A DNA stretch of 64,000 nucleotides from Escherichia phage LH2. Below, piece after piece: positions 24,688-29,069 of this stretch (within the stretch, counting starts at the first letter, position 1; the number at the start of each line of letters is the position of its first letter). Both the position numbers and the translations under genes were made by a program. The notes under the pieces were generated by a model. That model saw only the letters and a list, made by a program, of their open reading frames with translations, was not told where the DNA came from and made no database searches. The stretch lies in sequence record OQ378934.1; one strand, 5' to 3'.

Positions 24688-24903
24688 ATGAAACGTAAAA
24701 TTGTTCAGAATTGCACTAATGATGAATTTGAAGATGTATTATTCGATCCAGATTTGGTAGTAGTTCAAAAGGAACATACTAGCAAGTTTACTCACTTGAC
24801 TTCGGTTTATGTGTATGAGAAAGTCGGTGATAAACAGCCAATTTATGGTGTATTTCGTGAAATTACTGAAGATGGCACAACTTACTGGAAGGAAATTTAT
24901 TAA
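24688..24903 (+). CDS. cef: Cef-like small protein
   Basis: 71 aa; matches T4 cef length and position. Confidence 0.45.
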
Positions 24904-25322
24904 TGGCTATTAAATTTGAAGTTAATAAATGGTATCAATTTAAAAATAAACAAGCTCAAGAAAATTTTATTAAAGACCATACTGATAACGGAATCTATGC
25001 ACGACGTTTAGGTATGGAGCCTTTTAAAATTTTAGATGCTGATTATCTTGGGCGTCCTACTAAAATTATGACATCCATAGGTGTGCTCAAACGTTGTGCC
25101 GGCGGTGATATCCTTGATGAAAACTTTATCTGGCTCTCTACTAACGAAGCTGGGTTCTTTGATGAAGTTGAAAATCCATATCAGGCTGCTGAAGAACAAG
25201 AGCAGGAAGAGCAAGAACAAATAGAAGATTTCACAGAATTCCCGGTAATGAAAGTTACTATTGAAAATAATGAACAAGCATGGTCTTTGTATCAGATGTT
25301 GAAAGCTCACTTTAAGGAATAA
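24903..25322 (+). CDS. hypothetical acidic protein (T4 goF position)
   Basis: 139 aa with [10 protein letters not shown] acidic tract. Confidence 0.45.
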
Positions 25323-25324
25323 TT

Positions 25325-25501
25325 ATGCCTCTTTATGATTATAAATGTCAATCCAAAGACTGCGCAAAAGAATACGAAAAAATCAAGAAAATTTCTGAAA
25401 GGGATACTGATGTATGTCCTGATTGTCATCGGATTGCTATTCGGTTAGTTTCCGCTCCTAAGCATGTGAATGGTGGATTTTACGACTTACTTAAAGGGTG
25501 A
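25325..25501 (+). CDS. zinc-ribbon small protein (FmdB-like)
   Basis: 58 aa; CxxC...CxxC (YKCQSKDC ... CPDCH); below ORF-track cutoff. Confidence 0.45.
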   Translation: MPLYDYKCQSKDCAKEYEKIKKISERDTDVCPDCHRIAIRLVSAPKHVNGGFYDLLKG

Positions 25502-25503
25502 TT

Positions 25504-25875
25504 ATGTTTAAAATCGGTAAGAAATATCGTGTTCGCGAAGGTGAAGAAAAGAAATATCTACTTTCTTCTATTTATAGGAATGGTTCTATTAATGCCGTAA
25601 TATCTACAAGTGAATTTATCGTTGAAGATATGAAAGGTAATAATGTTACAATGATTAGTACATCATCTGGAAATGATGGAAAAATTCTTCACAGTTTTCA
25701 GAGTAATGTTCTAATTTATGATGAAGAATTTGACTTCTTCGAAGAAGTTCCTGAAGATTTTGATTTTGGATGCACCATCACTATGAAATCTGGCGACCCT
25801 CTTTCTTTTACAGTTAAAGATGAAAGAAGTCGCTTGAGAATTATTAGTCTCCTTCAAGCCATTAAATTTGAGTGA
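25504..25875 (+). CDS. hypothetical protein
   Basis: ATG 25504; 123 aa. Confidence 0.5.
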   Translation: MFKIGKKYRVREGEEKKYLLSSIYRNGSINAVISTSEFIVEDMKGNNVTMISTSSGNDGKILHSFQSNVLIYDEEFDFFEEVPEDFDFGCTITMKSGDPLSFTVKDERSRLRIISLLQAIKFE

Positions 25876-25879
25876 AATT

Positions 25880-26140
25880 ATGAAATATGTTAATCGTTCT
25901 ATCGCGGCATTAGTATTAGCAGTATCTTTAGTAGGATGTACTGATGCTGATAACGCAACCAAAGTTTTGTCTTCAAGCGGTTTTACTAATATTGAAATCA
26001 CTGGATACAATTGGTTCGGTTGCTCTGAAAATGATTTCCAGCATACTGGATTTCGTGCTATTGGACCTACTGGGCAGAAAGTAGAAGGAACAGTATGTTC
26101 TGGGCTGTTCTTTAAGGATTCGACTATCCGTTTTAAATAA
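25880..26140 (+). CDS. putative lipoprotein
   Basis: ATG 25880; signal peptide and lipobox LVGC. Confidence 0.5.
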   Translation: MKYVNRSIAALVLAVSLVGCTDADNATKVLSSSGFTNIEITGYNWFGCSENDFQHTGFRAIGPTGQKVEGTVCSGLFFKDSTIRFK

Positions 26141-26164
26141 AAGGCCTTCGGGCCTTTAGCTTTA
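26141..26164 (+). terminator. hairpin after lipoprotein gene
   Basis: aaggcc-ttcg-ggcctt; weak T-tract. Confidence 0.4.
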
Positions 26165-26209
26165 TGATTACCGGAGTATAATATTCCCGAAACCAAACGA
26201 GGATAAGTG

Positions 26210-27760
26210 ATGATTAAGAATGAAATTAAAATTCTGAGCGATATTGAACATATCAAAAAGCGTAGCGGCATGTACATTGGTTCTTCTGCTAATGAAATGC
26301 ATGAGCGCTTTCTGTTTGGTAAATGGGAAAGTGTTCAGTATGTACCTGGTCTTGTTAAGCTTATTGATGAAATTATCGATAACTCAGTAGATGAAGGTAT
26401 TCGTACTAAGTTTAAATTCGCAAATAAAATTAATGTTACCATTAAAAATAATCAGGTAACAGTTGAAGATAACGGTCGTGGTATTCCACAAGCGATGGTT
26501 AAAACACCTACCGGTGAAGAAATTCCTGGTCCAGTTGCTGCATGGACTATTCCAAAAGCAGGTGGTAACTTTGGTGATGATAAAGAACGCGTCACTGGCG
26601 GTATGAACGGTGTTGGTTCTAGTTTAACTAACATTTTTTCTGTGATGTTTGTCGGCGAAACTGGCGATGGTCAAAATAATATTGTAGTTCGTTGTTCAAA
26701 TGGCATGGAAAATAAATCGTGGGAAACTATTCCTGGAAAATGGAAAGGAACTCGTGTTACTTTCATTCCTGATTTTATGTCATTTGAAACTAATGAGCTA
26801 TCTCAGGTTTATCTTGACATTACATTAGATCGTCTCCAGACACTTGCAGTAGTTTATCCTGATATTCAATTTACCTTTAATGGTAAAAAGGTTCAGGGTA
26901 ATTTTAAGAAATACGCACGCCAATATGATGAGCATGCTATCGTTCAAGAACAAGAAAATTGTTCTATTGCGGTTGGTCGTTCACCGGATGGTTTTCGTCA
27001 ATTAACATACGTCAATAACATTCATACTAAGAATGGTGGCCATCACATTGACTGTGTTATGGATGATATTTGTGAAGACCTTATTCCACAAATCAAACGT
27101 AAATTTAAAATTGACGTAACTAAAGCACGTGTTAAAGAATGTTTGACTATCGTTATGTTTGTTCGTGATATGAAAAACATGCGATTTGATTCTCAAACTA
27201 AAGAGCGTTTGACTTCTCCATTTGGTGAAATTCGTAGTCATATTCAGCTTGATGCTAAAAAGATTTCACGTGCTATTTTAAATAATGAAGCAATTTTAAT
27301 GCCAATTATTGAAGCTGCCTTAGCTCGTAAATTGGCGGCAGAAAAAGCAGCAGAAACTAAAGCAGCTAAAAAGGCCTCTAAAGCTAAGGTTCATAAACAT
27401 ATCAAAGCGAATCTTTGTGGTAAAGATGCTGACACGACTCTTTTCTTGACTGAGGGTGATTCTGCTATCGGATATCTTATTGATGTTCGTGATAAAGAAC
27501 TTCATGGTGGTTATCCATTGCGTGGTAAAGTTCTTAACAGTTGGGGTATGTCATATGCTGATATGCTTAAAAACAAAGAACTGTTTGATATTTGCGCAAT
27601 CACTGGATTAGTTCTTGGTGAAAAGGCATTTGAAGAAAAAGAAGATGGCGAGTGGTTTACTTTCGAACTAAATGGCGATACAATTATCGTAAATGAAAAT
27701 GATGAAGTACAGATTAATGGTAAATGGATAACAGTAGGTGAATTACGAAAAAATCTATAA
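26210..27760 (+). CDS. 39: topoisomerase II large subunit gp39 (GyrB-like ATPase)
   Basis: 516 aa; recognised as T4 gp39; ends where mobA insertion begins. Confidence 0.95.
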   Translation: MIKNEIKILSDIEHIKKRSGMYIGSSANEMHERFLFGKWESVQYVPGLVKLIDEIIDNSVDEGIRTKFKFANKINVTIKNNQVTVEDNGRGIPQAMVKTPTGEEIPGPVAAWTIPKAGGNFGDDKERVTGGMNGVGSSLTNIFSVMFVGETGDGQNNIVVRCSNGMENKSWETIPGKWKGTRVTFIPDFMSFETNELSQVYLDITLDRLQTLAVVYPDIQFTFNGKKVQGNFKKYARQYDEHAIVQEQENCSIAVGRSPDGFRQLTYVNNIHTKNGGHHIDCVMDDICEDLIPQIKRKFKIDVTKARVKECLTIVMFVRDMKNMRFDSQTKERLTSPFGEIRSHIQLDAKKISRAILNNEAILMPIIEAALARKLAAEKAAETKAAKKASKAKVHKHIKANLCGKDADTTLFLTEGDSAIGYLIDVRDKELHGGYPLRGKVLNSWGMSYADMLKNKELFDICAITGLVLGEKAFEEKEDGEWFTFELNGDTIIVNENDEVQINGKWITVGELRKNL

Positions 27761-28556
27761 TGACTTAATAGTGCGGGGTAAAACCCGCGTTTCTAAATTT
27801 AAGGGTGAAATTCATCATATCCTTCCAAGATCAATGGGAGGTTCTGATGATAAAGAAAATTTGGTGAAACTGACTTTTCGTGAACACTTTTTAGCACATT
27901 TTCTACTATATAAAATTCATCGTAATCGTGAAATGGCATATGCGATGAATAGAATGTTAAACACTGAAAAATATTTACGTTCTAGTAAATTATATGAAAT
28001 TGCTAGAATTTACCATCAAAGAGCAGTATCTGAATGGTCAAAAAACTTTATGAAAGATAAAGTTTTAATGAGAAGTATTAAATCGGGTAAATGCGCCTTA
28101 TTAATTAAAGGATCATTTAACCCAAAGGAATGGTGCGGTGTTAATAAAGGTGTTAAGCTTCCTGGAATTAAAGGCATGACATGCTTTAAAAATGAAAAGG
28201 GCGAAGTTTTTCGTCTTCATGTTAATGATCCACGCATTAAAGCTGAAAAATTAGTTGGTATTGGAAATACTGTTGCTGCTACTGCAAAAGCAGCTGAACT
28301 TGAAAAAGCGAAACCATGGTATAATAAATCAGCGACAAATCCAGAGGCTGTAAAATTAATACCAAATTTATATGAATGGTACGTCACGAAATATGACCCC
28401 GATCATTATAAACGAACAGGAGTTGCTAAATGGAAATCAGTTAATAATATAACTGTGAATTCAAAATTATTCGGCCGAGCATTTAATGAATTTAAACGCG
28501 GTTGGATTCCTGATGAAAAGTTCTATGAGGTGTATAATGAAATTTGTAAAAATTGA
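27738..28556 (+). CDS. mobA: HNH homing endonuclease MobA
   Basis: GTG start overlapping last 23 nt of gene 39; HNH core EIHHILPRSMGGSDDKENLVKLTFREH; sits between 39 and 60 as T4 mobA. Confidence 0.85.
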   Translation: MNYEKIYNDLIVRGKTRVSKFKGEIHHILPRSMGGSDDKENLVKLTFREHFLAHFLLYKIHRNREMAYAMNRMLNTEKYLRSSKLYEIARIYHQRAVSEWSKNFMKDKVLMRSIKSGKCALLIKGSFNPKEWCGVNKGVKLPGIKGMTCFKNEKGEVFRLHVNDPRIKAEKLVGIGNTVAATAKAAELEKAKPWYNKSATNPEAVKLIPNLYEWYVTKYDPDHYKRTGVAKWKSVNNITVNSKLFGRAFNEFKRGWIPDEKFYEVYNEICKN

Positions 28557-28674
28557 TTCTTCTAGCGTTGATATGAAAAAATATAAATTGCAGAACAATG
28601 TTCGTCGTTCTATTAAATCCTCTTCAATGAACTATGCGAATGTCGCTATTATGACAGACGCAGATCACGATGGA
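28537..28674 (+). CDS. 60: topoisomerase II subunit gp60, codons 1-46 up to take-off GGA
   Basis: MKFVKIDSSS...DADHDG then UAG; matches T4 gene 60 before the bypass. Confidence 0.9.
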
Positions 28675-28724
28675 TAGCCTTCGGGCTATCCATAGAAATA
28701 CCTCATAATTAAGAGATTATTGGA
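28675..28724 (+). other. gene 60 translational bypass (50-nt coding gap)
   Basis: take-off GGA 28672-28674, UAG stop, tagcc-ttcg-ggcta hairpin, landing GGA 28722-28724; segment lengths sum to 160 aa. Confidence 0.9.
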
Positions 28725-29069
28725 TTAGGTTCTATTTATCCTTCTTTGCTCGGATTTTTTAGTAATTGGCCAGAACTGTTTGAACAAGGAAGAATTCGCT
28801 TTGTCAAAACTCCTGTAATCATCGCTCAGGTCGGTAAAAAACAAGAATGGTTTTATACAGTCGCTGAATACGAGAGTGCTAAAGATGCTCTACCTAAACA
28901 TAGCATCCGTTATATTAAGGGACTTGGCTCTTTGGAAAAATCTGAATATCGTGAGATGATTCAAAACCCAGTATATGATGTTGTTAAACTTCCTGAGAAC
29001 TGGAAAGAGCTTTTTGAAATGCTCATGGGAGATAATGCTGACCTTCGTAAAGAATGGATGAGCCAATAG
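28725..29069 (+). CDS. 60: topoisomerase II subunit gp60, codons 47-160 after landing
   Basis: Resumes LGSIYPSLLGFFSNW...; listed ORF 28746 is the in-frame tail. Confidence 0.9.
   Translation, partial: LGSIYPSLLGFFSNWPELFEQGRIRFVKTPVIIAQVGKKQEWFYTVAEYESAKDALPKHSIRYIKGLGSLEKSEYREMIQNPVYDVVKLPENWKELFEMLMGDNADLRKEWMSQ

Follow-up and report, generated by a model that had tools for sequence, protein, structure and literature searches.

Positions 25325–25501 of the Escherichia phage LH2 sequence hold a real gene of 58 codons, which comparison with related phages identifies as the ortholog of T4 gene 39.2 (nwgI). We put at roughly 85% the probability of the full reading, in which this ortholog encodes a minimal FmdB-type zinc ribbon and, by transfer from its T4 counterpart, would act on the GroEL/GroES chaperonin. 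The gene is already known: it has been named since the annotation of the T4 genome and was characterised in 2012. Its existence, orthology, family and ligand conservation are established by the present analysis, and the effect on GroEL is taken from the literature.

The analysed stretch (64,000 nucleotides of record OQ378934.1, hereafter the window) belongs to a Tequatrovirus (T4-like) genome. A megablast search with positions 24900–26300 matched 691 phage records, nearly all of them T4-like phages from Escherichia, Shigella or Yersinia, with Escherichia phage N2 as the top match (98.6%), and a 12-kb query showed ~96% identity to several Tequatrovirus genomes. The window is oriented in reverse of the conventional T4 map. 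All on the plus strand, cef, goF, 39.2, an ORF of 123 aa, 39.1 and gene 39 follow one another in this order, and gene 39 closes the co-oriented run that contains 39.2. The features are as follows.

24688..24903, plus strand: cef, from the annotation of relatives
24903..25322, plus strand: goF (comC-alpha) ortholog, 139 aa, from N2 and T4 annotation and PHROG matches
25314..25318, plus strand: Shine-Dalgarno-like AAGGA within the last goF codons, read from the sequence and invariant in T4, T4T and N2
25325..25501, plus strand: gene 39.2 (nwgI) ortholog, 58 codons plus TGA, from sequence, orthology and dN/dS
25325..25432, plus strand: zinc-ribbon domain, residues 1–36, from PF09723, AF2 strands and ligand conservation
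25346–25348, 25361–25363, 25415–25417 and 25424–25426, plus strand: ligand codons for C8, C13, C31 and C34, respectively
25451..25486, plus strand: conserved C-terminal motif SAPKHVNGGFYD, residues 43–54, from the alignment; low pLDDT
25504..25875, plus strand: 123-aa ORF, homolog of RB69 ORF005, from PHROG, N2 annotation and BLASTP
25880..26140, plus strand: 39.1 ortholog with a lipoprotein-like N-terminus, from N2, T4 and T4T annotation
26210..27760, plus strand: gene 39, DNA topoisomerase II large subunit, from the annotation of relatives

The ORF starts with the ATG at 25325 and ends with the TGA at 25499–25501. Its translation, MPLYDYKCQSKDCAKEYEKIKKISERDTDVCPDCHRIAIRLVSAPKHVNGGFYDLLKG, is identical to the one quoted in the earlier note on this DNA, which had also remarked that the ATG comes directly after the upstream stop; the goF TAA occupies 25320–25322 and only 2 nt separate it from the ATG. 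The AAGGA element lies 6 nt upstream of the start codon, and a gap of another 2 nt separates the 39.2 stop from the downstream ATG at 25504, so that the packing is tight on both sides.

Several lines of comparison establish the identity of the gene. The T4 reference record places 39.2 immediately after goF, under the label 'FmdB-like transcriptional regulator', and the slot occupied in LH2 (after goF and before 39.1/39) has the same gene order in T4, T4T, IME08 and RB69. The LH2 protein is 97% identical over 58 aa to gp39.2 of T4T (ADJ39725), from which it differs only by I37L and I39V. The N2 protein is 100% identical to that of LH2, as are those of at least eight other phage records, and in a tblastn search 164 phage records reach an identity of at least 99%. 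LH2 39.2 shares with T4-type gp39.2 the length of 58 aa, the four ligand positions and the C-terminal GGFYD motif; identity falls to 79% with RB69 and to about 45% with the RB43 and RB49 types. The earlier note had thus correctly sited the ORF between a goF-type ORF and gene 39, but the named gene 39.2 had gone unrecognised. Its description of the ORF as unlisted holds for that reader's own ORF track and not for most related GenBank records, where the gene is annotated. The accompanying warning that size-filtered annotation may miss such a gene is borne out by Citrobacter phage IME-CF2 (NC_029013), which has no CDS over the ortholog. In that record (NC_029013.1), the ortholog is found at ~110770–110950, flanked by a hypothetical gene and the gene for the topoisomerase II large subunit.

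The T4 reference itself (NC_000866.4, 5702..5839) gives 39.2 as only 45 aa, and the LH2 protein is 91% identical to this truncated form over its 45 aa. The reference reads GCTTCCTAAG, with one extra T, where the LH2 window, N2 and T4T read GCTCCTAAG; the additional base leads to a premature TAA and hence to the 45-aa form. Several further differences cluster near the extra T, and the re-sequenced T4T record has 39.2 annotated at its full 58 aa. The extra T is probably an old sequencing error that has propagated in RefSeq and UniProt ('Uncharacterized 5.1 kDa protein').

The surroundings of 39.2 include two small genes. The 123-aa ORF is present in N2 and RB69 and absent from T4 and T4T, so that its insertion between 39.2 and 39.1 distinguishes LH2 from T4. 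It is 39% identical to RB69 NP_861695 (E 2e-26). Both goF and the 123-aa ORF match PHROG 622, which suggests that the latter may be a distant goF paralog; compared directly by BLASTP, the two proteins show no significant similarity (E 1.3). The 39.1 ortholog begins with MKYVNRSIAALVLAVSLVGCTDA, a signal peptide with a lipobox-like LVGC, suggesting that it could be a small phage lipoprotein.

Domain searches support the earlier reading of the product as an FmdB-type zinc ribbon. Residues 1–36 match Pfam PF09723 (Zn_ribbon_8) with 42.4 bits (gathering score 34.4; E 7e-11), residues 1–45 match NCBIfam TIGR02605 ('FmdB family zinc ribbon protein') with 43.2 bits against a cut-off of 31.3, and the protein also matches PHROG 1076. 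The cysteine arrangement had been described as CxxC-(n)-CxxC. This is correct for the second pair (C31-PD-C34), whereas the first pair (C8-QSKD-C13) is C-x4-C. The ligand positions, whose conservation in orthologs had been proposed as the touchstone for the ribbon, are kept. Every one of 13 orthologs from annotated phages has C31 and C34, with C8 and C13 almost as constant. In a set of 46 database relatives, C8 and C31 never vary, and C34 shows conservation of at least 90%. At the second ligand position stands Cys, or His in the Krischvirus-type proteins (CEEH), and the spacing of the first pair over the 46 relatives takes the forms C-x1-C, C-x2-C, C-x4-C and C-x2-H.

An AlphaFold2 model of 39.2, built from the 46-sequence alignment, has a mean pLDDT of 77 and values of 84–87 across residues 1–40. 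The predicted strands 3–8/16–20 and 28–30/37–41 form two β-hairpins with a Cys pair at each turn, which in the model is the zinc-ribbon arrangement. Searching solved structures with the 39.2 sequence returned nothing below E 1, and Foldseek of the model against the PDB gave no significant match (best E 0.48). The top non-significant Foldseek matches are RbpA, aRF1, MCM zinc ribbons and the ribosomal proteins bL33/eS27. These solved zinc ribbons (the core, in the case of RbpA) have in common with 39.2 two β-hairpins with ligands at the turns, but at E of 0.48 or above, a TM of at most about 0.5 and without sequence relationship, the resemblance is one of fold class only.

Outside the ribbon, the best-conserved stretch is SAP..V.GGFYD, in which P45 and G51 never vary and G50, Y53 and D54 rarely do. 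Residues 45–58 have pLDDT values of 55–60 in the model, and the predicted tail is probably flexible. In cellular FmdB proteins (60–110 aa), the homologous motif is SAPxFxLKGxGWYxTD(Y/F), and a long low-complexity extension comes after it. The phage protein and the cellular family (PF09723; TIGR02605 CxxC_CxxC_SSSS) are alike in the MP.Y.Y.C N-terminus, the two Cys knuckles and the SAP....G.G(W/F)Y.(T)D motif. They differ in the first knuckle, C-x4-C in 39.2 and CxxC in the cellular family, and in the Ser/Lys-rich low-complexity tail of the 80–110-aa cellular members, which 39.2 lacks. We looked for the Ser-rich 'SSSS' extension and found that 39.2 stops at residue 58, right after GGFYDLLKG, where cellular members continue for 30–50 residues. 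The domain that defines Pfam PF09723 is unaffected by this missing extension. Phage 39.2 is a minimal version of the FmdB family, ending just after the tail motif. We also asked whether the GGFYD tail might imitate the GroES mobile loop as a device specific to phages. We rejected the phage-specific part of this idea, since cellular FmdB proteins have the homologous motif, which thus belongs to the family as a whole.

The function that we assign to the gene comes from work on T4. The T4 39.2 product is described as a 58-aa peptide that subtly modulates GroES/GroEL (PMC5153855, Georgopoulos essay). Gp39.2 moves the open/closed equilibrium of GroEL towards the open conformation, the form to which co-chaperonins of host and phage can bind, and T4 lacking 39.2 fails entirely to grow on particular groEL mutants (PMC5153855, PMC4396842). 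The reported modulation, which includes suppression of groEL/groES alleles, concerns the T4 and RB69 proteins. For the GroEL effect, both articles cite Ang and Georgopoulos, Genetics 2012;190:989. Given 97% identity to the T4 protein, we transfer the GroEL function to LH2 39.2; nothing in the LH2 39.2 sequence itself points to GroEL. In the 2012 study by Ang and Georgopoulos, the gene was reportedly first selected from RB69, the T4, RB43 and RB49 homologs are said to behave alike, and overproduction is said to be lethal. As the deletion phenotype appears on mutant groEL hosts only, the natural role could be broader or different.

In the mechanism that we propose, two β-hairpin knuckles would provide C8/C13 and C31/C34, presumably to one Zn(II), and would be followed by a short flexible tail with SAP..V.GGFYD. 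The protein would act on the host GroEL/GroES chaperonin, for which we infer direct contact as well as the contact residues. GroEL would be pushed towards the open state that binds the co-chaperonin (GroES or phage gp31), which would secure the folding of phage proteins that depend on GroEL, the major capsid protein among them, in hosts with a sub-optimal GroEL.

A transcriptional regulator acting on DNA or on RNA polymerase/sigma, as the database label says, is an unlikely identity for 39.2. The label 'FmdB-like transcriptional regulator' appears in both RefSeq and PHROG, and Foldseek lists non-significant matches to sigma and RNA polymerase binders (E 0.48 for a YdjO-SigA model; E 0.7 and a TM of about 0.5 for RbpA). 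No fold match is significant, however, and Pfam and NCBIfam show no DNA-binding or RNA polymerase-binding domain beyond the zinc ribbon. To our knowledge, the 'regulatory' name of FmdB was inherited from a gene beside the Methylophilus formamidase operon, without functional evidence. The sole reported experimental phenotype of the phage protein concerns GroEL (PMC5153855, PMC4396842). The label thus finds no support for 39.2, and GroEL modulation is the function that we retain.

A wider question is whether the SAP....GG(F/W)Y.D tail is a general chaperonin-interaction element, common to phage and widespread cellular FmdB proteins. We regard this as distinctly improbable; if it were true, the phenotype of phage 39.2 would reveal the function of the cellular family, as small zinc-ribbon GroEL modulators. 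In several metagenomic contigs, a cellular FmdB gene occupies a conserved position immediately before aspS, with yebC and ruvC-ruvA coming next, and a second cellular FmdB gene that we examined adjoins thyX. Neither of these two genes is near groESL, their neighbours being aspS-yebC-ruvCAB or thyX, so that their genomic setting does not speak for a chaperonin role across the cellular family. Literature searches on FmdB function and on 39.2 expression yielded nothing useful, and we know of no determined function for cellular FmdB-family proteins.

The gene is widespread and its position is well conserved. In tblastn searches, 875 phage records encode a relative, 861 of them covering at least 80% of the protein. 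Shortly upstream of the gene for the topoisomerase II large subunit, with either no or one to three small ORFs between, 39.2 is found in six genera (Tequatrovirus, Dhakavirus, Mosigvirus, Kagamiyamavirus, Pseudotevenvirus and Krischvirus), and its upstream neighbour varies among genera (goF, motB.2 or dexA). This persistent proximity despite a changing upstream neighbour would be expected if 39.2 assisted the phage topoisomerase II or DNA replication as an accessory factor and was for that reason kept near gene 39. Such a role, suggested by gene order only, is very unlikely: in one Vequintavirinae phage the homolog lies in a different and unrelated context, near DNA ligase; other small ORFs of variable occurrence (39.1 and the 123-aa ORF) separate 39.2 from gene 39; and the synteny is explained by inherited gene order in a conserved early region.

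The coding sequence is under strong constraint. By the Nei-Gojobori method, dN/dS is 0.048 against IME08 and 0.04–0.06 in the computable RB69-clade pairs (N2 or T4T against RB69/SA79RD), with synonymous sites at or near saturation (19–26 synonymous and 6–14 non-synonymous differences over 57 codons). ORF length alone is no proof of a gene here, since 5 kb of this AT-rich DNA contain 41 ORFs of at least 30 aa. What raises 39.2 above chance is the family match over curated cut-offs, together with purifying selection and conserved synteny. A chance, unexpressed ORF, which the plentiful short ORFs and the frameshift to 45 aa in the T4 reference might seem to favor, is excluded by the 875 phage relatives and by the low dN/dS at saturated synonymous sites, and is further contradicted by the family scores, the coverage of at least 80% in 861 records, the full 58 codons in T4T and the published deletion phenotype (PMC5153855, PMC4396842).

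Promoter scans were carried out around the gene and over the window. The sigma70 scan around 39.2 gave 6 sites, fewer than the 9.8 in shuffled controls, and no plus-strand site with a MotA-box-like pattern occurs between 23250 and 26210; no dedicated 39.2 promoter can thus be assigned. Over the whole window, MotA-box-like patterns (TGCTT, 13–16 nt, TANNNT) number 41 against 19 expected, mostly on the plus strand, an excess that is consistent with T4 middle promoters. On the minus strand, at 25351–25322 inside the 5' end of 39.2, a sigma70 pair (TTGACA-18-CATAAT) matches 11/12 of the consensus. It arises from the conserved YDYKCQ codons and the start region, and is probably incidental, promoter-like sites in the region being below the shuffled expectation. 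An Rfam scan of the whole window at gathering thresholds gave no match.

Further downstream, the window shows two other features. An intact H-N-H endonuclease ORF of 272 aa (27738–28556, plus strand) shares 23 nt with the 3' end of gene 39. In the T4 reference, its place is taken by mobA, annotated there as no more than a 'defective' remnant of 37 aa. Gene 60 (28486–29069, plus strand) contains the classic 50-nt translational bypass, with the gap at 28675–28724. After the take-off GGA at 28672–28674 come TAG and a stem-loop (GCCTTCGGGC); landing is on the GGA at 28722–28724, and reading restarts at the TTA at 28725. N2, the closest relative for the 39.2 region, has an unsplit gene 39 of 605 aa, which, set against the gene 60 of LH2, indicates that the region is mosaic.

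The sighting of 39.2 is correct but ordinary, carrying little weight as a discovery, and its practical points concern annotation. Small ORFs such as this one are lost to length cut-offs, as in at least one RefSeq phage record that lacks 39.2, and in the T4 reference record a one-base frameshift shortens the protein to 45 aa. The propagated label 'FmdB-like transcriptional regulator' hides the sole experimentally supported function of this phage protein, the modulation of GroEL.
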